From a virus: a stretch of DNA of 43,260 nucleotides. Position numbers and translations under genes: made by a program. Position 1 is the stretch's first letter, and each line of letters starts with the position of its first letter. The stretch lies in the IMG/VR virus record IMGVR_UViG_3300045988_009985; one strand, given 5' to 3'. Shown in pieces: positions 6,444-39,138 of this stretch. A model generated the notes under the pieces. It did no database searches. It worked only from the letters and a program-made list of their open reading frames with translations, and had not been told where the DNA came from.

Positions 6444-7529
6444 ATGTCTACTTGTATTAAATGCGGCGTCACCCTGGTACCGGATGCCGTTTATTGCCAT
6501 ATCTGCGGGAAAAAGCAGGTCACGGCCTCCCGCAAGGCGCTGAAACGCCCCAACGGGTCCGGCACGGTGTATAAGCTGGGTGGGCGGCGGTCGCGCCCTT
6601 GGGTCGCCGCAAAAGACGGCGTGTATATCGGGTACTACGAGCGGAAAACGGACGCGCTGGCCGCGCTGGATCGGCTGGCAGGCCGTCCGCTGGAAGAAAA
6701 GTTCAATATGACCTTTTCCGAAGTGTTTACAGAATGGAAAGCCGAACACTATCGGGAGATAGGGGAGAAGGGCGTGGAATCCTATGACAGAGCCTACGCC
6801 GTATGTGCGCCGCTGCACAATAAGAAATTCCGTGACCTGCGCACAAAGGACTTTCAAGCCATCATCGACAGCAACATGGCAAAGTCCAACTCCACGCTGT
6901 CCAAATACAAGCAGCTCATGACTCAGATGGCCCGCTGGGCCGTCCGTGAGGAGATCGCCACCACCGACTTTGCCAAATATGTCAAGCTGCCCCAGCAGGT
7001 AAAAAAAGAAAAAGCCATCTTTACAGATGACGAAATCGCGCTATTGGAAAAAGACGGCTCAGATGCCGCCAAGATCGCCCTTATGATGATTTACACCGGT
7101 ATGCGCATCGGTGAATTGTTCTCCTTGCCGCTGAAAGACTACCATGAATCGTATGTGATCGGCGGCGAAAAGACAAAGGCCGGTAGAGACCGCGTCATTC
7201 CCATCCGCCCGGAGGGCAGGAAGTATTTTGCATATTTCGCCTCCCGCGCCACCGGCGACCTGCTCATTTCCGGCTACGATGGGCAGCGCATCCCCGCCAA
7301 TTACCGCAAACGTGATTTCTATCCGTTGCTGGAAAAGCTCGGCATTCCAAAGCACACGCCCCACGCCACGCGCCACACTTACGCAACATGGGCAAGAAAT
7401 GCAGGCATCCAGCCGGAGATTTTGCAGAAGATCATCGGTCACGCAAACTTCTCCACCACGGCGGACATTTACATCCATGCAGACGCGGAAAAGCTCATCT
7501 CCGCCGTTGAATCTGCAAGTAATTTGTAA
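6444..7529 (+). CDS. int: Tyrosine integrase with an N-terminal zinc ribbon and an AP2-like DNA-binding domain
   Basis: The zinc ribbon is CIKCG...CHICG. The catalytic signature is present: TGMRIGEL (Arg), HATRHTYAT (HxxR) and IIGHANFSTTADIYIH (His, Tyr). Confidence 0.9.
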   Translation: MSTCIKCGVTLVPDAVYCHICGKKQVTASRKALKRPNGSGTVYKLGGRRSRPWVAAKDGVYIGYYERKTDALAALDRLAGRPLEEKFNMTFSEVFTEWKAEHYREIGEKGVESYDRAYAVCAPLHNKKFRDLRTKDFQAIIDSNMAKSNSTLSKYKQLMTQMARWAVREEIATTDFAKYVKLPQQVKKEKAIFTDDEIALLEKDGSDAAKIALMMIYTGMRIGELFSLPLKDYHESYVIGGEKTKAGRDRVIPIRPEGRKYFAYFASRATGDLLISGYDGQRIPANYRKRDFYPLLEKLGIPKHTPHATRHTYATWARNAGIQPEILQKIIGHANFSTTADIYIHADAEKLISAVESASNL

Positions 7530-7663
7530 GTAACCGAAAAAAAACTAAAACCGCTTAAAACGGGTTCTTGTTATTGCTTTCCTGGAAACATTATCAAAAC
7601 ACAGCGAAAACCACGCAAAAACGTTGCGAAATTATATTGTCCATATTTGACGTGCATGGGGTC

Positions 7664-7691
7664 ACAGGTTCGAGTCCTGTACCGCGCACCA
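7664..7691 (+). other. 3' fragment of a tRNA gene (T-arm, acceptor 3' strand, CCA); putative attP core
   Basis: The sequence acagg-ttcgagt-cctgt-accgcgc-a-cca matches that structure. The matching 5' acceptor gcgcggt is absent upstream, so this is not a complete tRNA. It lies 135 nt downstream of int. Confidence 0.7.
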
Positions 7692-7696
7692 AAAAA

Positions 7697-7731
7697 ATCC
7701 CTGTAACCGCAACGGTTACAGGGATTTTCTT
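7697..7731. terminator. Rho-independent, bidirectional-type terminator
   Basis: atccctgtaacc and ggttacagggat form a 12-bp stem with a 5-nt loop. The hairpin is flanked by A7 upstream and TTTTCTTATTT downstream. Confidence 0.7.
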
Positions 7732-7772
7732 ATTTCCTCCAAAACACGTTTGTAAGTAACGTGTAAGCAACG

Positions 7773-8168
7773 TTACCCGTTCTCGACAACGTGCATTGCC
7801 TGCCGCAGCGCTTCCTTTACGTTGGGATCGTCGGTGTCCTGCATCATGCGCTCGATCAGATCCTTTGCCTTGCCCTCATCACGGCTGTACCGGCCCATAG
7901 AATCCCTCTTGCGCCGATACGAGCTGCCTCTGTTGTAGGCGGTGCGCCCGGAAGACCAGTCGCGGGAATAGCCGTCATCGCGGGAATACCCATCGTCGCG
8001 GCTGTAGTCGCCGCTTTCAAACATGGCGATTTTGTCAATGTTCTTGATGGACGATGCCAGCTTGTGGATGGCGTCCAGGTCAGCAGCGCTCAGCTCCCGC
8101 TGGCCGGAAAACTCAGACAGCTCTTCACATAGCATCTCTCGGATACCGAAAAGCTCCTTCATGTTCAT
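7773..8168 (-). CDS. Hypothetical protein with YSRD repeats
   Basis: The centre reads DYSRDDGYSRDDGYSRDWSSGR...RDSMGRYSRDEG, with helical N- and C-termini. This is the last gene before attP. Confidence 0.55.
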   Translation of the reverse strand: MNMKELFGIREMLCEELSEFSGQRELSAADLDAIHKLASSIKNIDKIAMFESGDYSRDDGYSRDDGYSRDWSSGRTAYNRGSSYRRKRDSMGRYSRDEGKAKDLIERMMQDTDDPNVKEALRQAMHVVENG

Positions 8169-8181
8169 GTTGCCCCTCCTT

Positions 8182-8622
8182 TCAGCAGACGCGCTCCACG
8201 ATCATGTTGCTATTGGCAAAGCTGATCGCCTGAGCGCTGGTGTTCTCCATCGCCACCGTTACGTAGCAGCCCTTCGGCACGTCCACGTTGGCAGCGACAT
8301 AGATGTTGAAATAGTTCTCCACGGCGGCGGGCGTTACTGTCGCCACGGCGCTGGTCAGCGGCTCACCGTTAATAGCCAGCGCGGCGGAGATCGCGCCCAC
8401 CGTGCCGCCGGTGGGGATGGCAATGTTTCCGCCGAAGGACACGCGAAACCGTGCCTTACACTGGTTTGTCAGGCCGCGCAGGAACACCTGCCCGCTGCCC
8501 TCGCGGTGTACGATGCAGGACTTGCCCGCAACGGCAGTTTCCGTCAGAGGCACATTCTGTCCGGCAGGTACGGTAACAATGTTGGTATTTACGTATTCAG
8601 CCAAAATACTCACTCCTTTCAA
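8182..8622 (-). CDS. BclA C-terminal-domain-like (C1q/TNF-like jelly-roll) protein. The start is uncertain: TTG at 8622 or TTG at 8604.
   Basis: It has a beta-rich pattern (FRVSFGGNIAIPTGGTVGAISAALAINGEPL...) and ends SNMIVERVC, like BclA-CTD terminal strands. AAAGGAG at 8613-8619 favours the 8604 start. Confidence 0.45.
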   Translation of the reverse strand: MKGVSILAEYVNTNIVTVPAGQNVPLTETAVAGKSCIVHREGSGQVFLRGLTNQCKARFRVSFGGNIAIPTGGTVGAISAALAINGEPLTSAVATVTPAAVENYFNIYVAANVDVPKGCYVTVAMENTSAQAISFANSNMIVERVC

Positions 8623-10690: not shown

Positions 10691-10726
10691 GAAAAAAAGA
10701 CACACCTACACGGTGTGTCTTTTTTC
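10691..10726. terminator. Rho-independent bidirectional terminator ending the late operon
   Basis: agacacacc-tacac-ggtgtgtct is flanked by A7 and T6. It overlaps the last codons of CDS 10706..10960. Confidence 0.7.
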
Positions 10727-25193: not shown

Positions 25194-25217
25194 GCGGAGG
25201 GGGATGACCCCCTCCGC
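25194..25217. terminator. Strong hairpin just downstream of the capsid gene, with no U-tract. It may be an mRNA stabiliser or a partial terminator.
   Basis: gcggaggggg-atga-ccccctccgc forms a 10-bp perfect stem. Confidence 0.45.
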
Positions 25218-27959: not shown

Positions 27960-29887
27960 AGGCTGGGCGTGCTCCGCTTTGCCAATGCCTGCCCGTAGCC
28001 GGTCATAGGCGTCTGCGCCTCCATGATGCCGCTTGCAAGCTGGCTGGTGGCCTCCGCAGGTGCGCCGCCGCCAGTCTGCGCCGGTGCATCGCCCGCGCCC
28101 TCCTGCGGCAGGATAGCGCCCGTCAGCATGGCGATCTGCGACTGCATCTGCATCAGCATATTCAGCAGGGTCTGCCCCTGCATCACCTTTTCCCGCACGG
28201 TCTGGATACCCTCGAAGTCCATCATCTCCAGCGCCGTCAGACTGGCCTGCGCGTTATCCGGATTAAAGAATCCCATGGAGTACAACTCCTTGGCCCGCTC
28301 GTTCTGTTCCATGCGGGAGAAAGGATTCTTTTTCTGCGCCTTGATTTTGAGGTCAAACACCGGCTTGCGGTACATTTCGTTGCCCATCGTATCCAGCCCG
28401 GTCACCTGATCCTGCAAGCCCGCGTTGTCGAAATCTACGAACTGATACTCGTTGCCCTCGCCGGTAATGCGGAAGCTGCGGCTCACATCGTAAAACTGCC
28501 TTATCAGTTCCACGCACAGCGTGTTAATCTGGGTGTAGGCACGGTAGCTGGCGGAGATCATATCCCGGCTTGCCTTGTTTCCGGCCTCCTGCAAGGCGGC
28601 AATCGCCGCTGCCGCCGTCACGTTGGAGGTGCCGCCGGAGTTCACGTCGCGGTTTGCCGCCGTGTCCTTCATTTCCTCGATCTTCATCTGCGCCACCGTG
28701 ACGTAGATATCACTGAGCGGCTGGGTGACGATCTCCTTGATCCTCTGGTCGCCGATCTCGCCGTTGACGTGTACCAGAGGGCGGTTCCAGTCGATAAATT
28801 CCTGCTCGTTGATGGCCGTACTCTCCGACACGAAGAAGCGCTTTTTGGTCGCCATCATCGCGTTTTCCAGAATGTTGGCGCTGAGCTTGTCAATGTATAG
28901 CTGGGGGTCTTTGCAGATCGCCACATAGCCAAAGCCGATAGGCGTACCCTTTTCCGGGTACATCACGTCCAGCACAACAGGGTACATCCCGTGGTCGTAA
29001 AAGCCCCGCTCCCGGTATTCCGGATCGTTCTCACTGGCATACAGCAGGGTAGACCCCACAAACTTGATGTAGTGCAGCGCCGTCCTGCCGCTGGGCGTCT
29101 TGACCTTGTAATACCAGTCCACCACCACGCTCTTTTCGCTGGTGTCCACGGTGTCATCGTAGATGTACTCCTTCACGTCCACGACCTTGCCCTTCTGCTT
29201 GCCCTTGAGCTGGGGGTACTCGCTGTCCAGCAGGTCGTTGTCCACCAGATCCACGATAAACAGGTTGCGGCTTTTTTGGATGTCCGTGATGCCCGGCTCC
29301 CAGAACAGGTTCAGCAAGTCGATGTTCCGGATCTCGATGTCGCCCAGCCCATTGTCCTTCCGGCTGTCCCAAAACACGCCGTATACCGCCGTTCCGTGCT
29401 TCAGCTTCTCCCACCAGTTGTCCGAGTACACCTGCTCAAAATGGTTGTATTCCTGCACCACCGGCAGGATCTGGCTCAACGTCTTGGCGCTCTGCTCGTC
29501 GCTGCGCTCACGGGGCAGCACCACCGGCTCCGGGTAGTTGTCCATCGCGTCCGCGTGCTTGTTTTGGATGGTGTTAAACAGCCACGCCGACGTAGGCTTT
29601 GGCTGGGGAGGGGAGGAGAGGACTTCCTTGCCGCTCTTATCCACCAGCTTGGCTTTACTCTGACCGATGCCCTCCCAGTGCCGCAGCTCCCACCACAACT
29701 CGTCGTTGACCACACGGCTCTCCAAATTGCCCTTGCCGTTTTTGTACCGCGTCAGCAGGTCGATACCGCGCTCCACGTCCTTTTCCGTAATGGTAGGCGT
29801 GTCGTCCGTCCGCTCCAGCAGCATCGCCGCCATCTCCGGCGGCATACCGTCCTCCGGCACAATGCCGGGGATGCCGTATCTCTCCAT
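27956..29887 (-). CDS. Portal protein
   Basis: It is 643 aa and lies immediately downstream of TerL. The N-terminus LLTRYKNGKGNLESRVVNDELWWELRHW is portal-like. Confidence 0.8.
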   Translation of the reverse strand: MERYGIPGIVPEDGMPPEMAAMLLERTDDTPTITEKDVERGIDLLTRYKNGKGNLESRVVNDELWWELRHWEGIGQSKAKLVDKSGKEVLSSPPQPKPTSAWLFNTIQNKHADAMDNYPEPVVLPRERSDEQSAKTLSQILPVVQEYNHFEQVYSDNWWEKLKHGTAVYGVFWDSRKDNGLGDIEIRNIDLLNLFWEPGITDIQKSRNLFIVDLVDNDLLDSEYPQLKGKQKGKVVDVKEYIYDDTVDTSEKSVVVDWYYKVKTPSGRTALHYIKFVGSTLLYASENDPEYRERGFYDHGMYPVVLDVMYPEKGTPIGFGYVAICKDPQLYIDKLSANILENAMMATKKRFFVSESTAINEQEFIDWNRPLVHVNGEIGDQRIKEIVTQPLSDIYVTVAQMKIEEMKDTAANRDVNSGGTSNVTAAAAIAALQEAGNKASRDMISASYRAYTQINTLCVELIRQFYDVSRSFRITGEGNEYQFVDFDNAGLQDQVTGLDTMGNEMYRKPVFDLKIKAQKKNPFSRMEQNERAKELYSMGFFNPDNAQASLTALEMMDFEGIQTVREKVMQGQTLLNMLMQMQSQIAMLTGAILPQEGAGDAPAQTGGGAPAEATSQLASGIMEAQTPMTGYGQALAKRSTPSL

Positions 29888-29900
29888 ATCCTTTTCCCCC

Positions 29901-31343
29901 TTAATAGGTCTGATAAAATGCGTACCGGCTGGGCCTGTACTCGTCCTCCGTGTCCAGCGGCGAATAGGGCCGCTCCACGATGTGCCCCATATCTCTTGGC
30001 CCGATAGGGTTTTTCATGCACACATACCGCAGCTGGTCGTAGATATGATCCTCGCCGTCCGTGTCGATGTCCTCTACGTCCGTCTGGTCATAGACCAGGT
30101 TCGGCACCGTCCGGATAAAGTTTTTGCAGGTGGAGAACACATACAGCATCGGTACGCCGTCTGCGTCAAACGCCAGCCGGTGGTGGATCTGCATCTTGCC
30201 GTTGATCCGTGCATGGTCGCCCTTTTCAAAATAGACACGCTCCCGTTCCATCAGCGCTCCCACGCTTTCCGTGCCGTCGCTTTGCCAGATCGCCGGGTCG
30301 CCCACGCGGTGTATGTCCCGTCCCCGCAGGTTGGGGTCGTCCGCCTCGATGCGCCGTATCTCCTGCGCCACCTTGGTCGGCTCCCACATCACGCCGCGGT
30401 TGGGGGTCCCGTTGCAGCCGTAAAACTCCCGGATATGGTACATCCGCCGGTTTCTGTCCACCGCGTACCACCCCACGGAAAACGGACGGGAATAGCCCCA
30501 GTCCAGCCCGCACCAGATCACCCAGTCCTCCGGTATGCGGAACGGCTCGATGACGTGGGTGTTCTTCCTGTCCAGATAGTGTTCCCGGTCGTTTTTCCAC
30601 TCCGTGAACACCTGCCCCTCGAAGCTGTCCCAGTTGCCGTACAGCAGGGCATTCCGCTCCGCCTCCGGCATACTGGCCAGCCGCTGCACATACAGCGGGT
30701 CATTTTCCATCAGGATCTTGTTGTCAAACACGGAGGACGGCACAAATATCCGCTGCTGCTGCCCCGTGTGCTTTTTCCCGTCCGGCGTATACCACATCGC
30801 CTCCTCTGTGATGGGCTGCATCGGCGGTGCCGCCGTGATAAACCGCTCCTTGACCCAGCCATGCCCGATGTTGCCGGGGTTGGCGGTGGAGCGCATATAG
30901 ACCCGTGTTCCCGCCCCGTTGGGACGATTACGGGATTTCAAATAGTCGTATTCCTCCTGCGTAAAGTGCGTCAGCTCGTCAAACGCGATAAAGTCATACG
31001 CCTGCCCCTGATACTGTATCTTGTCCTGCGGTCGGTTCATGCTGCCAAACACGATTTGCGCACCGGACGGAAACCGCCATGTGTGGTTACTGCCGTTGTA
31101 CCGTGCCTTGGGATACGCACGGGGGTAGTAGTTCAGCGTCTTGTCGATCAGCTCCCGCAGCTGGGGAAACGTCTTGCGCAGGATCAGCGCCTTGTACCAC
31201 GGAATATGCACCTGCCGCAGCGCCTCGATGACCAGCGCATCGCTCTTGCCGCCGCCCGCCGCCCCGCCATACAGGGCTTCATATTCCGGCCTTGCCATAA
31301 ATACGGCCTGCCGCTCCTGCGGCTTCCACACGATCTCAGGCAT
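29901..31343 (-). CDS. terL: Terminase large subunit
   Basis: The Walker A motif is YGGAAGGGKS. The gene overlaps the TerS stop, and the C-terminal region is nuclease-like (DWGYSRPFSV...). Confidence 0.9.
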   Translation of the reverse strand: MPEIVWKPQERQAVFMARPEYEALYGGAAGGGKSDALVIEALRQVHIPWYKALILRKTFPQLRELIDKTLNYYPRAYPKARYNGSNHTWRFPSGAQIVFGSMNRPQDKIQYQGQAYDFIAFDELTHFTQEEYDYLKSRNRPNGAGTRVYMRSTANPGNIGHGWVKERFITAAPPMQPITEEAMWYTPDGKKHTGQQQRIFVPSSVFDNKILMENDPLYVQRLASMPEAERNALLYGNWDSFEGQVFTEWKNDREHYLDRKNTHVIEPFRIPEDWVIWCGLDWGYSRPFSVGWYAVDRNRRMYHIREFYGCNGTPNRGVMWEPTKVAQEIRRIEADDPNLRGRDIHRVGDPAIWQSDGTESVGALMERERVYFEKGDHARINGKMQIHHRLAFDADGVPMLYVFSTCKNFIRTVPNLVYDQTDVEDIDTDGEDHIYDQLRYVCMKNPIGPRDMGHIVERPYSPLDTEDEYRPSRYAFYQTY

Positions 31344-31737
31344 CCGTTTTTACCTCCGGCATCAGCACCACGCCGCCACCGCCATTATCCACAGCAGATC
31401 CCATTGTCGTCCACTTATCTATCAGTGTCCCGATCGCCGTCGTGATCTGGCTGGGCGTTGCTTCCGCCAGCTTCTCCGGGTCGTTCAGCGCCGCCAGCCC
31501 CTTGCCGATGATCTGGCACACCGTCTCCCGCTGGGCATCCATATATGCCAGCACGTCCACCGTGTTCTCTTCCTTTTTTTGTTCGCACTTTTCCACAATG
31601 TCTGCATTCGCCCGCACAAGGTTTTTCACCGTCGTCGCGGACACGCCGTTGATCTTCGCGGTGGCGCAGTAGTTGTTGGTCTGCACATAGTCCGCCAGTA
31701 TTTTCTTTTTCTGTCGGTCTGTCAGCCGCGCAGCCAT
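31336..31737 (-). CDS. terS: Terminase small subunit
   Basis: AAGGAG precedes the ATG at 31737. MAARLTDRQKKKILADYVQTNNYCATAKINGVSATTVKNLV is an HTH. The gene overlaps the TerL start. Confidence 0.75.
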   Translation of the reverse strand: MAARLTDRQKKKILADYVQTNNYCATAKINGVSATTVKNLVRANADIVEKCEQKKEENTVDVLAYMDAQRETVCQIIGKGLAALNDPEKLAEATPSQITTAIGTLIDKWTTMGSAVDNGGGGVVLMPEVKTDA

Positions 31738-31956
31738 TGTCACCACTCCTTCGTTCCTGACGCACCGACCCCCCACCACTGGCCTTTGTCATTGGCACGT
31801 CTGTCCCAGGCTTCCGCCACACCCTAATGCTAATTTTTGTGCGTTTGCCCCGTCAGGGCGGAGCCGAAGCCCCGCCCCACAGGGTAGAAAAGAGGGGAAA
31901 AAAATGAATCGGCACGGGCAGGTTGCCCCTGCATATCCAGCATACCTATATGTATA

Positions 31957-32009: not shown

Positions 32010-32038
32010 TTGACATACCACGCAATGCGTGGTAGTAT
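32010..32038 (+). promoter_or_regulatory. Strong sigma-70-type promoter with a perfect palindromic operator in the spacer
   Basis: TTGACA lies at 32010-32015 and TAGTAT at 32033-32038, 17 nt apart. The palindrome TACCACGCA-a-TGCGTGGTA spans 32016-32034. Confidence 0.7.
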
Positions 32039-32093
32039 ATAGACAGTTCAAGAAACAGTGCAGCCGCACAGCGGCAGAAAGAGGAGGAACATC

Positions 32094-32327
32094 ATGAAGA
32101 AGCTTATCGACACTGCCACCAACACCACGATCTGCGAGATCGTATCCAACCACAGCATGACGCTGGACGAGGCCATCGAGTGCGCAGGAGGCGAGATCAT
32201 CAACGATGCCAACGACGAGCGTTGGTCCCCGGAGGAAAATGTCATTATCGATGGCGCGTACTATTGCTACGACGATCTGGATTTTGTCTACATTCCCGAC
32301 GAGATCTCCCCCGTCGCCCACCGCTGA
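32094..32327 (+). CDS. Small, strongly acidic protein (77 aa)
   Basis: GAGGAGG lies 6 nt before the ATG. There are 17 Asp/Glu against 4 Lys/Arg. This is the first gene after the operator-bearing promoter. Confidence 0.65.
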   Translation: MKKLIDTATNTTICEIVSNHSMTLDEAIECAGGEIINDANDERWSPEENVIIDGAYYCYDDLDFVYIPDEISPVAHR

Positions 32328-32336
32328 CCACCCGCC

Positions 32337-32933
32337 ATGCGAACGAAAAAATGCATCACCTGCGGCAAGGTGTTCTCCACAGACCGCGCCGAGCAGGCGA
32401 AGTGTGATGAATGCCTTGCCGCCACCAGATCCACCACCCTGCGCACCCGAACCTGCCACACCTGCGGGGCTGCCTTCACCGGCGGCCCCCGCGCCCGCTA
32501 CTGTCCCACATGCCGGGCCGAGCGGCAGAAAGCCCGGGAGCGAAAGTACCAGGCCTCCGGTTACTCCCGGCACCTGGGAGACATCGATAACTGCGTGATC
32601 TGCGGCGGCGAGTATGTCATCCGATCCGGCCTGCAGAAGTATTGCCCCAAATGCGCACCGGATGCCGTCCGCGAAATCGACCGTGCGCAGGCCAACCGCT
32701 GGAACGCCGAACACGATTACCGCGCCAAGCGCCGTGAAACACCCCGCCGGGGCGTCAAGGTCTGTGTTGTCTGTAGCCGGGAGATCGTCCCCGGCACCCC
32801 CACCGTCACCTGCTCTCCGGAGTGCGCCGCCGCCCACCGGAAAGAGGCCCAGCTTCGCGCGGACGCCAAGCGCCGTGGCCAGAACAGGAAGAAATCGACG
32901 CCAACCGAAGCCAAAAAGGAGAAATTGCCATGA
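32337..32933 (+). CDS. Protein with four tandem zinc-ribbon modules, each followed by a basic helix
   Basis: The modules are CITCG..CDEC; CHTCG..CPTC; CVICG..CPKC; CVVCS..CSPEC. Confidence 0.65.
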   Translation: MRTKKCITCGKVFSTDRAEQAKCDECLAATRSTTLRTRTCHTCGAAFTGGPRARYCPTCRAERQKARERKYQASGYSRHLGDIDNCVICGGEYVIRSGLQKYCPKCAPDAVREIDRAQANRWNAEHDYRAKRRETPRRGVKVCVVCSREIVPGTPTVTCSPECAAAHRKEAQLRADAKRRGQNRKKSTPTEAKKEKLP

Positions 32934-33271
32934 TGACCGACAAACTGTTCTACACCATATTCGGCGACGCCATCGCTTCGCCCGACCGAGACACCTTTGT
33001 CTCCGACTGGTCGCTGTCCTCCGCTTGGGGCGATGCGCCGGACGCGGCCATCCCCGCAGACCGCATCGACCTGCTGGCGCGTCTCTGGGACGCCGCCCAC
33101 CTGACGATCCGCGACATCCGTCAGCACACCGGCCTGTCCCAGGCGGCCTTTGCCACCCGGTACTGTATCCCCACCCGCACACTGGAGGACTGGGAGCGCG
33201 GCGTGAGGAGCTGCCCGGACTACCTGCGGCTCCTGCTGGCGCAGGCATCCGGCCTTTACACAAGACCATGA
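32930..33271 (+). CDS. HTH regulator (XRE/MqsA-like C-terminal HTH)
   Basis: IRDIRQHTGLSQAAFATRYCIPTRTLEDWERGVRSCPDYLRLLL is the HTH. The start forms an ATGA overlap with the upstream gene. Confidence 0.7.
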   Translation: MMTDKLFYTIFGDAIASPDRDTFVSDWSLSSAWGDAPDAAIPADRIDLLARLWDAAHLTIRDIRQHTGLSQAAFATRYCIPTRTLEDWERGVRSCPDYLRLLLAQASGLYTRP

Positions 33272-33276
33272 CGTTG

Positions 33277-33310
33277 AAAAGAGGACACCTACATGGTGTC
33301 CTCTTTTTTA
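33277..33310. terminator. Bidirectional rho-independent terminator between convergent units
   Basis: aaaagaggacacc-tacat-ggtgtcctcttttttat forms the hairpin. Confidence 0.75.
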
Positions 33311-33499
33311 TGTTTCCACGTCCTCCGGGAAAAATGTTTCACGGACGCCCTTGCACTCCGCCACGATGTATCGCCCCTTTGGATGCACATACACCACCGT
33401 TGCCTTGCGCACGGGGTACTGTTTTTCCGCCTTTCCGGAGCCGGGGAACGGGTCCGGCATCGTCAGAAAGCGGGCGCGAATCACATCACCCTTCTGCAT
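33308..33499 (-). CDS. Small hypothetical protein (63 aa); last gene of the early/middle operon
   Basis: The ORF overlaps the upstream gene and is followed by the terminator. Confidence 0.5.
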   Translation of the reverse strand: MQKGDVIRARFLTMPDPFPGSGKAEKQYPVRKATVVYVHPKGRYIVAECKGVRETFFPEDVET

Positions 33500-33833
33500 T
33501 GTCCCTCCACGGCGTATCTACGCACTCCGGTTTTTTGCACCGCATTTCGATCGCCCACAAAATGTTCCACGCCGCCGCCAGCAGGTGATCTTCATCCTCC
33601 TGTCCGTCCAGATACTTCGCAGCGTGCCGCATAGCGCTGTCCATCAGACTGCTGGTGGGGATCCCTTTATCGACATTATGCACCCCGTACTTGATCGCCC
33701 CAGCCTCGCAGTGCTTGCTTACCTCGATGATCGCCGCCCAGGGAAGAAGATCCATGCGGCCTTTCCCGCTGTGCATGTCCCGCTGCGCCCCGGTGCTGAA
33801 GGTGGTACGCTCCCCGCTGTCCCTAATGTTCAT
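33486..33833 (-). CDS. Protein with a dATP/dGTP pyrophosphohydrolase-like N-terminal domain
   Basis: GKGRMDLLPWAAIIEVSKHCEAGAIKYG...AMRHAAKYLDG...DEDHLLAAAWNILWAI matches that phage domain. Confidence 0.6.
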   Translation of the reverse strand: MNIRDSGERTTFSTGAQRDMHSGKGRMDLLPWAAIIEVSKHCEAGAIKYGVHNVDKGIPTSSLMDSAMRHAAKYLDGQEDEDHLLAAAWNILWAIEMRCKKPECVDTPWRDNAEG

Positions 33834-34092
33834 GCTTGTCGTCCTTTCTCTCTCCGTAGGAGCAATAACGCATATCCCCGTTGCTGTTGATGTAAGAGAA
33901 GTGGTTGACTTCGCACATAAACCTCTTCCCGCCCTCAAATTCGTCTGCGATCAGGTAGTGCTTGCAGTCCTTACAACGTACCACCGGGGCAACATCAGCG
34001 GCGGGGATCTCGTCTAAGAGTTGTTCTGCGGCGTAGGCGTATTCGATATGCAACAGCCTCTTCGCCTTTTCCCTGTTAATGTATTCAGCCAT
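33823..34092 (-). CDS. Hypothetical protein (89 aa)
   Basis: It starts at MAEYINRE. IPAADVAPVVRCKDCKH is a motif common in Firmicutes phage early genes. Confidence 0.5.
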   Translation of the reverse strand: MAEYINREKAKRLLHIEYAYAAEQLLDEIPAADVAPVVRCKDCKHYLIADEFEGGKRFMCEVNHFSYINSNGDMRYCSYGERKDDKHEH

Positions 34093-35704: not shown

Positions 35705-37741
35705 TCATTCCTCCTCCGGAAAATGTTCCTTTGTCACGGCGATGGGAAACGGCTCGATCTCGCTTGCCCACCGCGCCGTACCTTTCCCGTGTATGCGCTC
35801 CCAGATCAGCGGAAAGCCCGCGATGCCATCAAATAAGCTTCCCAGCGTCGCGTCCTCCGGCAGATACCGCGCCATGCGCCGCAGCATCCAGTCCCAGAAG
35901 GGCAGGGCGATGGAGTTGCCCAGCGCCTTGTACTTCGGGCTGTCCGCGTCCTTGTGTTTCTTTCCCTTCTCATCCGTCCAGTCGCCAATGTCCACCCATC
36001 CGTCCGGGTATCCCTGCAAGCGTGTACATTCCAACGGCGTCAATCGGCGCACCACCATGTTCTGCACCGGGTATGTCTCCGCGTCCTCCCGGTACGCGCA
36101 GTTCGCCTTTTCCCGTATCGTGTGGCTCACGTCCGCACAGACGACTGCGTGGCTCACTTTGCTTTCTCCTGCTCGTAATGCGTTCTTCGTTTCGCTTTCT
36201 GCCCAGTTTTCTTCCATCGCGCTTTTGGGCTGGTATAAAACCGCCCGCGCCGCGTCCGGGGTTACGCCGCACACAAGGTCTGTGCTGTCCTTAAAGTCAC
36301 GTTGCTTGCAACTGCTTGCAACCTCGGCGGCGCGGTAATCTCCAAACCCGTTCATCTGGTATGTAAGCGGCACTTGGTTTCCGCCCGTGCCCATCCTCGC
36401 CTGCAACGCCGGGACCTGCTCCCCGCACTCGCGGATGACGTCACAGGCGTGTGTCATGTCCAGCGCCACCACCGCGGGCTTATTCCCGCCGCACTCGGCG
36501 TTCAGTGTAGGAGACAGTTCCTCTTGATAGCCGATGCTCCGCGCCTGTTCACTATTGCCCAGCTTAAAACCGGCACACAATACACTGTCCCGCGCCATGC
36601 CGCCGTTTTCGTTGGCATTCAAGCTGTGCCATGCGCCATCCTGATCGTACACCCTTGCGCTCTGTGCGTCCCAAGGATTCAAACACGCAACCTCCGCGCA
36701 CACCGCAGGGCGGTCTATTGTGTTCAGGGTGTAGCTCTCGTCCGTTTTCCAGCCTTTCCCGTTGCATCCGGCGGTATCGGCGAGGTCAATGCCGTTTCCT
36801 TGCAGACAGAAAATCGTCTGATCGTTTCCTCCGCCATCGTGGTTATGGCTCTCTCCGCCGCCCTGCCATCTGGTGGCTTTTCCGTTGATGGGGATAGCCG
36901 TTGCAAATACGCCATGCGAATGTGCAGCAGAAATGGTGTTCGCCGGGTCGCCCGGTTCTCCTACGCCAAATCCTGTTCCGCGCCCTAACGCTTTGCAGCG
37001 CGTAGCCACCATCAGGTTAATAGGCGTGGGCGTAAAAATCGTCTGGTCATTGCCCGTACCAAGCGTTCCGCTTTTCTCCGTCTGCACTAAAGCGCCTTTT
37101 CCTCCTCCGTCACAGCCCCCCCTGATGCGGACTGCATAAGAAGCACCTCTTTCAGCCGCTCCGGCAGGTCCTTCCCCCGCCGCTCCGCTCTCCGCAGGAT
37201 GCCCAGACACGCTTTCGCGGTCAAATTGTATTTGGGCAGCGGATTCACCTCCAAAATCTGCGACAACCGAGATTCTTCGGCGACGCTGTGGGGTCCCCAG
37301 ACGGATAACATTTCCTGTACGGCTGTCTCGGATGGTTTTTCCCCAGTCCTTAGCGTCGTGAGTTCGCCAAGCGATAGACCACCCATCACCGTCAATGGCT
37401 CCTGCTTTTGTCCATTTCTGCTTGTCCGGCAGTCCAGATAGAGAAAATCCTGGTTCTGCGATACGCGCAATTTCTTCCAGCACGGCTGCGAAGTCTTTTC
37501 CTCTGTTGCTGCTGAATGCTCCGACAACGTTCTCCCAAACGAGAAACCGAGGTCGGACCATGTCACCTGTCCGTCCATTCCGTTTGTCCTCCGCTCTCAT
37601 TTCTTTTACGATGCGCACCTGCTCCATAAACAAGCCGCTTCGCGCTCCCGCCAGTCCGGCGCGTTTTCCGGCGATGGATAAATCCTGTCTAACAAGGTGA
37701 ACCACCTGTAATACACCAAATGGGTTCAATCTCTGCCCCAT
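35705..37741 (-). CDS. DNA (cytosine-5) methyltransferase homologue with permuted motif order and no in-frame catalytic Cys. It may be a pseudogene or a recoded gene.
   Basis: In order, the ORF carries QDLSIAGKRAGLAGARSGLF (second half of motif IV), ENV, PQRRRR, a long variable region (FCLQGNGIDLADTAGCNGKGW), RRLTPLECTRLQGYPDGW, GNS, and then, at the C-terminus, LGSLFDGIAGF...WASEIEPFPI (motifs I-II). Confidence 0.8.
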   Translation of the reverse strand: MGQRLNPFGVLQVVHLVRQDLSIAGKRAGLAGARSGLFMEQVRIVKEMRAEDKRNGRTGDMVRPRFLVWENVVGAFSSNRGKDFAAVLEEIARIAEPGFSLSGLPDKQKWTKAGAIDGDGWSIAWRTHDAKDWGKTIRDSRTGNVIRLGTPQRRRRISVVADFGGESAAQIQFDRESVSGHPAESGAAGEGPAGAAERGASYAVRIRGGCDGGGKGALVQTEKSGTLGTGNDQTIFTPTPINLMVATRCKALGRGTGFGVGEPGDPANTISAAHSHGVFATAIPINGKATRWQGGGESHNHDGGGNDQTIFCLQGNGIDLADTAGCNGKGWKTDESYTLNTIDRPAVCAEVACLNPWDAQSARVYDQDGAWHSLNANENGGMARDSVLCAGFKLGNSEQARSIGYQEELSPTLNAECGGNKPAVVALDMTHACDVIRECGEQVPALQARMGTGGNQVPLTYQMNGFGDYRAAEVASSCKQRDFKDSTDLVCGVTPDAARAVLYQPKSAMEENWAESETKNALRAGESKVSHAVVCADVSHTIREKANCAYREDAETYPVQNMVVRRLTPLECTRLQGYPDGWVDIGDWTDEKGKKHKDADSPKYKALGNSIALPFWDWMLRRMARYLPEDATLGSLFDGIAGFPLIWERIHGKGTARWASEIEPFPIAVTKEHFPEEE
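37087..37578 (-). CDS. Embedded alternative-frame ORF (163 aa) inside the MTase gene
   Basis: GGAGG lies 9 nt upstream of the ATG. The C-terminal part reads LSQILEVNPLPKYNLTAKACLGILRRAERRGKDLP. GC3 is higher than in the MTase frame over the overlap. The ORF ends at a G7 tract. Confidence 0.4.
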   Translation of the reverse strand: MDGQVTWSDLGFSFGRTLSEHSAATEEKTSQPCWKKLRVSQNQDFLYLDCRTSRNGQKQEPLTVMGGLSLGELTTLRTGEKPSETAVQEMLSVWGPHSVAEESRLSQILEVNPLPKYNLTAKACLGILRRAERRGKDLPERLKEVLLMQSASGGAVTEEEKAL

Positions 37742-38061: not shown

Positions 38062-39138
38062 TCAATACCTCACTCCGATGTAGTCCAGCACCCGCGCATA
38101 GCCGAGGCCGTCCTTCGTGGGCTTCCACAGCCCGTCCGTGTCAAATGCGCCGCCGCCGATGCAGATCGCATAGTGCGTCGGGTGCGTCAGTTTCATGCGC
38201 TGAAATCGGTTGATGCCTTTTTCAAGATGCGCCCCGAAACCGCAGAACATACAGCCCGTCCTCTGGCAACCCGTGCAGTGCAACTTGCAGTCGATCAGCG
38301 TAGCGCCGTAGTCGTTCTCGCCGTCGCTGGCCACGATGTCACCGTACACGCTGGCGTAGGGCAGTTGGTGGTCTACTATAAACCGCAGCACATCCTGTTC
38401 CGTCCAAAAGCTCATGGGCTTGCCCATCGGTCGCTTGCCCTCGAAGGCGTTGCACCCAGTATTCAGCCAATACGTCATGCGAAGTCTGCTTTCCTCCGCC
38501 ATCGTCGCTGTTGTAGCCTGCTGCCCGGTTTTGTGTGCGTAGGTTTTTAGCGGTGACTTTTTCATAATGGCGCAGCACGTCGAGGAGATTACAAACGGTG
38601 CGTACAACAGATATTCCCATTTCTCGCAGTTGTAGACAGACGGCTGACCGTCTTTTCGCACGGCTTCCCCTCGCAGCCGCTTCATTCTCAAGCCGTTTGG
38701 GTTCCTGCGGGCTTCGCTGACATATCCCGCAACCTCTTTGCTCACAATGCTGTACCCGTACTTCGTCACAACCTGCCGGATGTTCATCTTCGGACGCAGA
38801 CGGTGAAGATTTACGGTCACGCGGGGAAATTCCCTCCGCAGCCAGTCGGCGTACTCATTCACGAACTTCTGAATTTCAGGGTATTCCAGCCCTGTGTTCA
38901 CGAACACCAGATTCAGCTCCCAGGGCGGTGTCCTGAAGCTCGACAGGTACCGCGCCGCCAGATACGCCAGTACCGTGCTGTCCTTGCCGCCGGAGAAACT
39001 GACATAGCACTGTCCGCCCCATGCGGTGTACCACTCGTCCAGCTTTTCGTAGGTGGTCAGTTCCTTTGCCGTCAAATCCAGCGCCATCAGTTTCCTTGCC
39101 GCCTCTTTTGTCAGCGGCGTATTTGTCGGCATTATCAC
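38062..39138 (-). CDS. PAPS-reductase/DndC-like PP-loop ATPase with a C-terminal Cys cluster
   Basis: SFSGGKDS is the PP-loop. The C-terminus carries CTGCQRTGCMFCGFG. Confidence 0.8.
   Translation of the reverse strand: MIMPTNTPLTKEAARKLMALDLTAKELTTYEKLDEWYTAWGGQCYVSFSGGKDSTVLAYLAARYLSSFRTPPWELNLVFVNTGLEYPEIQKFVNEYADWLRREFPRVTVNLHRLRPKMNIRQVVTKYGYSIVSKEVAGYVSEARRNPNGLRMKRLRGEAVRKDGQPSVYNCEKWEYLLYAPFVISSTCCAIMKKSPLKTYAHKTGQQATTATMAEESRLRMTYWLNTGCNAFEGKRPMGKPMSFWTEQDVLRFIVDHQLPYASVYGDIVASDGENDYGATLIDCKLHCTGCQRTGCMFCGFGAHLEKGINRFQRMKLTHPTHYAICIGGGAFDTDGLWKPTKDGLGYARVLDYIGVRY

Follow-up and report, generated by a model that had tools for sequence, protein, structure and literature searches.

A self-contained accessory operon, probably autoregulated and of acr-aca type, in a temperate human-gut phage

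In this work, we have analysed a 43,260-nucleotide (nt) stretch of viral DNA (IMG/VR record IMGVR_UViG_3300045988_009985; "the window" means the whole of that stretch), and within it a plus-strand island at positions 32010-33310 that carries three genes, here called g1, g2 and g3. The genome is that of a temperate human-gut phage of about 58% G+C with nearly all of its genes on the minus strand, the temperate call being based on an integrase gene at 6444-7529. The island sits between terS (31336-31779, minus strand), beside which lies terL (29901-31343, minus strand), and a converging minus-strand operon whose last gene is at 33308-33499, and the flanking genes are on the minus strand on both sides, from 33308 onward too. 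A preliminary description of the locus had placed here three genes on the strand opposite to their surroundings, between the end of the early operon and terS; the gene map agrees, and all of its factual statements on the anatomy of the island hold, each element lying where it had been put.

The first gene, g1 (32094-32327, plus strand), encodes a protein of 77 amino acids (aa) with an isoelectric point (pI) of 4.05, in which we count, as had been described, 17 acidic (Asp and Glu) and 4 basic (Lys and Arg) residues. Its predicted model, made of beta strands and one helix, is confident (predicted local distance difference test, pLDDT, 85.5), and its 35 relatives are close, none of them annotated. 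The DNA-mimic-like charge noted earlier for g1 stands as far as its acidity goes, and a mimic label would have that charge as its sole basis.

The second gene, g2 (32337-32933, plus strand), encodes a protein of 198 aa with a pI of 9.75 and 16 cysteines arranged in four CxxC...CxxC modules, the last of them CxxxC, which bears out the four zinc-ribbon modules previously noted. In the predicted model there are four ribbon hairpins, and a helix of 9-27 residues comes after each of them (pLDDT 82.7, predicted template modelling score 0.37). An alignment that took in 38 relatives has 20 invariant columns, of which 15 are cysteines. Among the 69 relatives found, some to many extend into an AP2 domain, a DNA-binding domain, at the C-terminus; the window copy has none and stops in the alignment where the AP2 domain of its relatives begins. 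The precomputed matches of g2 relatives to the double zinc ribbon DZR_2 (PF18912) are weak or faint, and the window g2 gives zinc-ribbon matches below threshold only. Phage proteins with the annotation site-specific recombinase or HNH endonuclease also contain the central ribbon pair, which fits a nucleic-acid-binding module. Most probably g2 is a nucleic-acid binder, and it would serve as a second regulator or else as an effector that binds DNA like the CasPR proteins discussed below.

The last gene, g3 (32930-33271, plus strand), encodes a protein of 113 aa whose C-terminal helix-turn-helix (HTH), already recognised in the preliminary description, matches Pfam HTH_3 at residues 60-101 with an E value of 3e-6, which clears the curated cut-off. 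The g3 start codon and the g2 stop codon overlap (ATGA), and the two genes are translationally coupled. The protein matches PHROG 25567, and in Pfam it gave the generic families HTH_3, HTH_31 and HTH_24 only, with no match to DUF1870. Across the clade of its relatives the motif IPxRT[LIV]EDWxxGxRxP is nearly invariant, and R83, E86, D87, W88 and R93 are fully so. A conserved N-terminal domain of about 55 aa (FVSDWSLSSxWGDxPD...) is shared by g3 and many clade members; other members consist of the HTH only (62-65 aa) or bear C-terminal extensions.

The three genes are preceded by a sigma-70-type promoter (32010-32038, plus strand), found by a consensus scan with 10 of 12 matches and an additional TG, and with the same layout in 86 places. 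It comprises a -35 hexamer TTGACA (32010-32015), a spacer of 17 nt, a TG extension (32030-32031) and a -10 hexamer TAGTAT (32033-32038), in agreement with the near-consensus promoter claimed before. As also claimed, and as can be read directly from the sequence, the spacer is wholly taken up by a perfect 19-bp palindrome, TACCACGCA-a-TGCGTGGTA (32016-32034), which has the core CACG-N5-CGTG and overlaps the first two bases of the -10 hexamer. We treat it as the operator, the putative binding site of a g3 dimer. The window contains it once in exact form. A further site that resembles it, TTCCACGCACAGCGTGTTA, lies at 28508-28526 within a 643-aa minus-strand open reading frame, with 2 mismatches to the operator pattern; it is probably due to chance, at least two sites arising in 2% of shuffles. 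A full-text literature search for the palindrome returned no paper with its 15-base core.

Downstream of the promoter comes a 5΄ untranslated region (UTR) of about 50 nt (32045-32093, plus strand), with transcription predicted to start about 7 nt after the -10 hexamer. It holds a GC hairpin, GCCGC-ACA-GCGGC (32063-32075, plus strand), that ends 5 nt before a Shine-Dalgarno sequence GAGGAGG (32081-32087, plus strand). When 53 distinct UTRs were folded, a short GC-rich hairpin was present 3-5 nt ahead of the Shine-Dalgarno sequence in most UTR classes (the window, L003-L087, L180, L232), with stems that vary by class (GCCGC-ACA-GCGGC, GGGC-AACA-GCCC, GCGGCC-ACC-GGCCGC, GGCC-GAA-GGCC, and GGGG-ACAA-CCC in the Flavonifractor phage Cormatin) and with folding z-scores of about -1 to -4.5. 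The role of this hairpin could be to exert control at the RNA level or to stabilise the mRNA. At its other end the island is closed by a bidirectional intrinsic terminator (33276-33308, the mapped element reaching 33312), which also ends the converging minus-strand operon; as had been described, the unit has a terminator of its own, here seen as a 14-bp stem with a 5-nt loop between an A-run and a T-run. A search of the island against Rfam gave two sub-threshold matches, both at the terminator.

How much do the promoter and its palindrome say by themselves? Promoter-like sites that match at 10 or more of 12 positions number 6 in the window, where 2.6 would be expected, and perfect inverted repeats whose arms are 9 bp or longer also number 6, where the expectation is about 1. 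Taken alone, promoter and palindrome are only moderately unlikely by chance, and because these expectations do not settle the matter, the case rests on conservation over dozens of loci.

Our searches show that the operator and the HTH clade travel together. The pattern TACCACGC-N3-GCGTGGTA is present in 85 IMG/VR stretches; with the window and two GenBank records added to these for the count of operator positions, the palindrome lies between -35-like and -10-like hexamers in 86 places. In 78 of the 81 promoter copies followed by enough sequence, a gene of the HTH clade is found 358-1436 nt downstream on the same strand, and it is found downstream of none of the four palindrome copies that lie outside a promoter. 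The reverse test, a genome scan with an alignment of four HTH sequences, returned 80 loci in Clostridia genomes (Oscillospiraceae, Lachnospiraceae, Butyricicoccus, Dysosmobacter, Dorea and others). The palindrome, allowing up to 3 mismatches, occurs within 3 kb upstream of the HTH in 33 of these 80 loci, with a single match elsewhere in them, and in the short HTH-only relatives it lies 47-100 nt ahead of their own start codon. We infer that a regulator of the g3 clade binds the operator and represses the operon, and that g3 is an Aca (anti-CRISPR-associated)-like autorepressor. That the island is an autoregulated operon is the part of our reading that we hold with high confidence. Among L024, L031, L225, L232, L027 and L084, some loci have two operator-bearing promoters a few hundred bases apart, which suggests that one HTH controls two operons there, and others have an extra operator copy just upstream of the -35 hexamer.

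What lies between operator and regulator is exchangeable. The promoter and UTR are conserved, as is the HTH gene (85-90% identical), but between them no fewer than 23 gene arrangements were counted, with cargo of about 25 families; many of these are small and acidic, and none is annotated. The preliminary description had proposed a guilt-by-association search with the HTH gene; the same operator within the promoter and the same clade recur with many swapped cargo genes. In MT835717, for instance, the promoter and UTR are kept (101 of 117 nt identical) and the HTH gene has about 90% nucleotide identity, with three different genes between them. On its other side the promoter is preceded by 25 unrelated upstream contexts. 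The cassette also changes place. The g1-g2-g3 trio follows the endolysin gene near the prophage end in MT835558, as the cassette does in MT835717. In four bacterial contigs (L088-L091, 143-330 kb) the trio borders an element that has a NikA-like gene and an IS30-like integrase (HTH_38 + rve), being situated at its edge, and this element occupies two chromosomal sites, one beside RNase J / rpoB and the other beside a beta-eliminating lyase gene.

Other terminal regulators pair with other palindromes at the identical promoter position, and this is the pairing, a different regulator with a different palindrome at the same place, that cis-autoregulation predicts. Two related phage loci, L175 and L176, have the promoter TTGACT-[..CCGCAAGCTTGCGG]-TATAAT and a 63-aa HTH regulator. 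L178 has TTGACT-[TTACCACCCACCGGTGG]-TATACT, with the palindrome TACCACC-N4-GGTGGTA and an 88-aa HTH. In the cultured Flavonifractor phage Cormatin the promoter is TTGACA-[ATACGCCAATATTAGCG]-TATAAT, the palindrome TACGCcaatattaGCGTA and the regulator a 164-aa HTH, and in L195 the spacer contains TATACAGC-N4-GCTGTATA. The Cormatin cassette (our L180; ON453905, 24084-25384) lies on the strand opposite to its neighbours, has a consensus promoter with its own spacer palindrome, and consists of a 115-aa gene, the 164-aa HTH annotated as "transcriptional regulator" and a 136-aa two-ribbon g2-like protein. A conserved family (MKKxIxGxxYDTxTA...; about 140 aa) whose C-terminus resembles a ribbon-helix-helix (L177 3571-3990, L224 4799-5236, L234 5325-5753) comes after g2 homologues in the HTH-less islands L177 and L224, and also precedes the g2 homologue in L177. 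By analogy with the ribbon-helix-helix protein Aca14, it may be an alternative regulator.

The connection with anti-CRISPR (acr) genes comes from sister cassettes. One such gene product, AcrIC5, is validated as an inhibitor of type I-C and has Firmicutes orthologues (PMC7913775). In L175, whose terL is 62% identical to that of the window, the synteny is that of the window: portal, terL and terS on the minus strand, then a plus-strand island, then SSB and RecT on the minus strand. The first gene of this island encodes a 62-aa protein with a full-length match to Pfam AcrIC5 (E 8.5e-20, 71 bits against a cut-off of 27), and the island ends with an AP2-bearing g2 homologue followed by the HTH; in L176 the AcrIC5 gene in first position is swapped for one encoding an unrelated acidic protein. 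A search of IMG/VR with the AcrIC5-like protein gave 54 loci, and in 17 of them a gene of the g2 family comes directly after the AcrIC5-like gene (E 1e-30 to 1e-56). One of these relatives (L224) is a 208-aa four-ribbon form that, like the window g2, has no AP2 domain, and in L188 the position of the g2 homologue after the AcrIC5-like gene is taken by a CasPR-like protein (CxCxC...CxC + AP2). In L232 and L225 it is an HTH of the g3 clade itself that directly follows the AcrIC5-like gene (profile E about 1e-16 in both; 38% identity to the g3 HTH in L232). The product of the L232 AcrIC5-like gene is 171 aa long and has its AcrIC5 domain (E 4e-18) at the C-terminus. The promoter of both loci, TTGACA-[ACACGAAATCCGTGTAG]-TATATT, has the CACG-N5-CGTG core spaced as in the TAC-CACG-CAATG-CGTG-GTA of the window.

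Previous work gives these neighbourhoods a context. An AcrIC5 homologue beside an AP2-domain gene led to the discovery of AcrIB2 (10.1101/2023.05.22.541795), and in Bacillota phages the acr loci commonly contain DNA-binding proteins of the AP2 and zinc kinds (10.1101/2023.05.22.541795; 10.64898/2026.02.23.707548). The CasPR (CapR+AP2) proteins of Bacillota prophage acr loci silence cas genes by binding within coding regions (10.64898/2026.02.23.707548). Inverted repeats are the elements through which Aca proteins repress strong acr promoters (PMC6765145, PMC9410906), and some of these proteins also bind RNA motifs in the 5΄ UTR (PMC6765145, PMC9410906, PMC13551039).

Our current hypothesis, held with moderate confidence, is that the island is a self-contained, mobile, autoregulated accessory operon of acr-aca type with a counter-defence role. 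Because related, swappable cassettes carry a known anti-CRISPR gene, it probably helps the phage to evade bacterial immunity. We propose that, once the DNA is available, the host sigma-A RNA polymerase would fire the extended -10 promoter and make one mRNA for g1, g2 and g3. The g3 protein would then dimerise through its HTH and occupy the 19-bp palindrome, and since the palindrome fills the spacer between the -35 and -10 hexamers, its binding would block the polymerase. Expression would thus start with a brief burst and then settle at a low constant level, as it does under Aca proteins, and the terminator would insulate the unit from the converging early operon. The g1 gene occupies the slot that AcrIC5-like genes have in the sister cassettes, and by this analogy of position its product is a candidate inhibitor of host defence; in that slot it would act as the inhibitor, with g2 as a DNA-binding accessory, either a co-regulator or a CasPR-type effector. 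The analysis shows the anatomy of the island, the joint occurrence of operator and HTH, the exchange of cargo and the tie to the AcrIC5 family; DNA binding, repression and anti-defence activity of g1 or g2 are all predictions. A bolder and doubtful extension, to which we give little weight, is that the g2 family, with or without AP2, represents a new class of DNA-binding components of anti-defence operons (a zinc-based Aca, or a CasPR-like silencer of host defence genes), and that the g3 clade would control the cassette at both the DNA operator and the UTR hairpin, as reported for Aca2/Aca1.

Several results weigh against this hypothesis. It is homologues and sister cassettes, and not the window's own genes, that connect the island with AcrIC5: a homologue of a validated anti-defence protein upstream of the regulator is present only in L175, L232 and L225, and the window proteins match no validated anti-defence family, either in sequence (Pfam, PHROGs, PADLOC, NCBIfam) or in fold (PDB, BFVD). 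No match to g1, and none of g2 to a validated anti-defence family, was found in Pfam, PHROGs, PADLOC or NCBIfam. In the fold searches neither g1 (PDB and BFVD) nor g2 (PDB) had a match below E 0.1, the best for g1 being E 3.3 in PDB and E 0.22 in BFVD, with none significant for g2. These searches agree with the earlier statement that g1 is not recognisable. The same had been said of g2, which stands in that no match of known function was found, but g2 is no longer anonymous, since its zinc-ribbon family is a recurrent one whose genes directly follow AcrIC5-like genes. The wider cargo is equally silent. Family scans in the same four libraries, covering g1, g2 and 20-46 cargo representatives, gave nothing informative beyond generic HTH, AP2, KilA-N and Bro-N matches in flanking genes; about 46 representatives from palindrome-bearing cassettes matched no known Acr or anti-restriction Pfam family; and an AcrIC5-like query found no match in any of the palindrome-bearing loci. 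The nearest solved or curated relatives of g3 are Atu1735 (uncharacterised), HigA-2 and the MqsA family, in line with the MqsA-like HTH of the preliminary description. Finally, a near-identical phage, L023 (IMGVR_UViG_3300045988_002093; 3 mismatches over 1087 nt), lacks 224 nt within g2 (equivalent to about 32566-32789 of the window), a deletion that fuses g2 residues 1-78, via an out-of-frame stretch, to the g3 frame. Because g2 is broken in this phage it would be non-essential, and it appears dispensable at least in the L023 lineage, barring an assembly artefact. Taken together, the acr-aca type organisation that had been read from the layout gains from comparison (the operator and HTH with varied cargo, the palindrome pairing, the AcrIC5 sister cassettes), but no homologue of a validated inhibitor lies in the island itself.

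The alternative that survives best, although we consider it unlikely, is that the island is an autoregulated moron, expressed from the prophage with g3 as dose limiter, whose benefit to the lysogen or the phage is other than counter-defence, such as phage exclusion, host manipulation or competition with mobile elements. It would suit a phage that is temperate by its integrase, a unit with its own promoter and terminator, and a cargo that is wholly unannotated, and the place of the MT835558 and MT835717 cassettes, after the endolysin gene near the prophage end, is the classical moron position. However, sister cassettes of the same design and from the same gene families carry AcrIC5-family genes, and the family scans detected no membrane, toxin or defence-system signature in g1, g2 or g3.

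Still less likely is a phage developmental module in which g2 and g3 act as transcription factors on phage genes, for example on the late operon from terS. Both have the look of proteins that bind nucleic acid, island and terS are divergent in the window as well as in L175-L178, and zinc-finger late-gene activators, which exist in P2-like phages, provide a precedent. Against such a role, the g3 operator has one good copy in the 43-kb genome, the cassette is found elsewhere in other elements (after the lysin gene, or beside the IS30-like integrase), and g2 is broken in a near-identical phage.

A toxin-antitoxin or abortive-infection-type module, with g3 as a HigA-2/MqsA-like antitoxin whose N-terminal domain neutralises an upstream toxin and whose HTH autoregulates the operon, we regard as highly improbable: the relatives of the g3 HTH named above and the order of the genes, with the partner first, the HTH gene last and the operator in the promoter as in higBA2 and mqsRA, would agree with it, but we reject it because the g3 N-terminal domain is kept when unrelated genes take the place of those upstream, and moreover HTH-only relatives without that domain use the same operator, and g1 (acidic, with no fold match) and g2 (zinc-ribbon) match no toxin family and are unlike RelE/ParE or MqsR toxins. 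An immunity region was ruled out by the integrase being 25 kb away and by the single good copy of the operator.

What does the cassette offer? Phages that infect gut Clostridia (Oscillospiraceae, Lachnospiraceae) have so far yielded few anti-defence genes. The 19-bp operator with its HTH clade is an anchor by which some 25 cargo families without annotation can be recognised, in no fewer than 78 viral contigs and in many bacterial genomes, and the families so marked form a candidate list for new inhibitors of bacterial immunity. The zinc-ribbon family, some of whose members have AP2, is tied to AcrIC5-type operons and bears on the question, raised in 2026 (PMC13551039), of whether zinc-finger DNA-binding proteins act in the regulation of acr operons. 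Since a cultured pair, phage Cormatin on F. plautii, carries a sister cassette, these predictions are open to experiment.

Some features of the surroundings are recorded here in their own right. The early operon beside the island encodes, on the minus strand, a protein matching the N-terminal domain of dATP/dGTP diphosphohydrolases (33486-33938), a 678-aa C5 cytosine methylase (35705-37741) and a PAPS-reductase-domain protein (38062-39138), which together suggest phage DNA modification or manipulation of the nucleotide pool. In L178, the early operon neighbouring the g2-containing island encodes a 305-aa protein (7453-8370, minus strand) with a Pfam match of the Tad2-like (anti-Thoeris) family. 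Three further perfect inverted repeats of the window (7700-7722, 10698-10720 and 25195-25216; arms of 9-10 bp, loops of 3-5 nt) are probably terminators.

How does the island compare with known systems? It shares with small restriction-modification controllers, the C proteins, an HTH autoregulator with a palindromic operator in its own promoter, and a PDB profile search of g3 gave weak matches to C proteins (E 0.008-0.17), but the unit has no restriction or methylase genes. With HigA-2 and MqsA, g3 has in common a C-terminal HTH_3 with an N-terminal extension, the last place in a short operon and a palindrome in the promoter; unlike theirs, its partner genes vary and are not toxin-like, and its N-terminal domain does not co-vary with them. 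The AP2 genes associated with AcrIC5 in Cryptobacterium and Clostridioides phages (10.1101/2023.05.22.541795), which can be used as bait for new Acr genes, are likened to g2 by position, each being a DNA-binding gene directly after an AcrIC5 homologue; for the g2 family this adjacency holds in the 17 of 54 loci given above. As with CasPR, the g2 family consists of Cys4 zinc modules joined by helices, many with a C-terminal AP2, in acr-type operons of Bacillota phages, but its ribbons are CxxC...CxxC and those of CapR CxCxC...CxC, and the window g2 lacks AP2. An identity of g2 with CasPR was ruled out by this cysteine pattern, by the absence of AP2 and by a tblastn search of g2 and an AP2-bearing relative against a phage collection, which found no protein of Listeria or Clostridioides phages.

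The closest likeness is to the acr-aca operons, of which Aca1 and Aca2 are the paradigms and for which Aca1-14 have been described. As in these, a strong promoter with an inverted-repeat operator is followed by small variable genes and, last, an HTH gene; the regulator is recombined with different upstream genes; the cassettes are found in phages, prophages and other mobile elements; and the sisters of the island carry AcrIC5-family genes. The island differs in having a single operator placed exactly in the 17-nt spacer, where the Aca paradigms have two inverted repeats, in a regulator clade that matches generic Pfam HTH_3 only and is likened to Aca by operon layout, and in the lack of a validated Acr in the window. 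The class of Aca-regulated anti-defence operons to which we assign the island is already known; new here are an HTH clade and operator undescribed in the literature searched, an unannotated candidate inhibitor, and a zinc-ribbon family linked to AcrIC5 operons.

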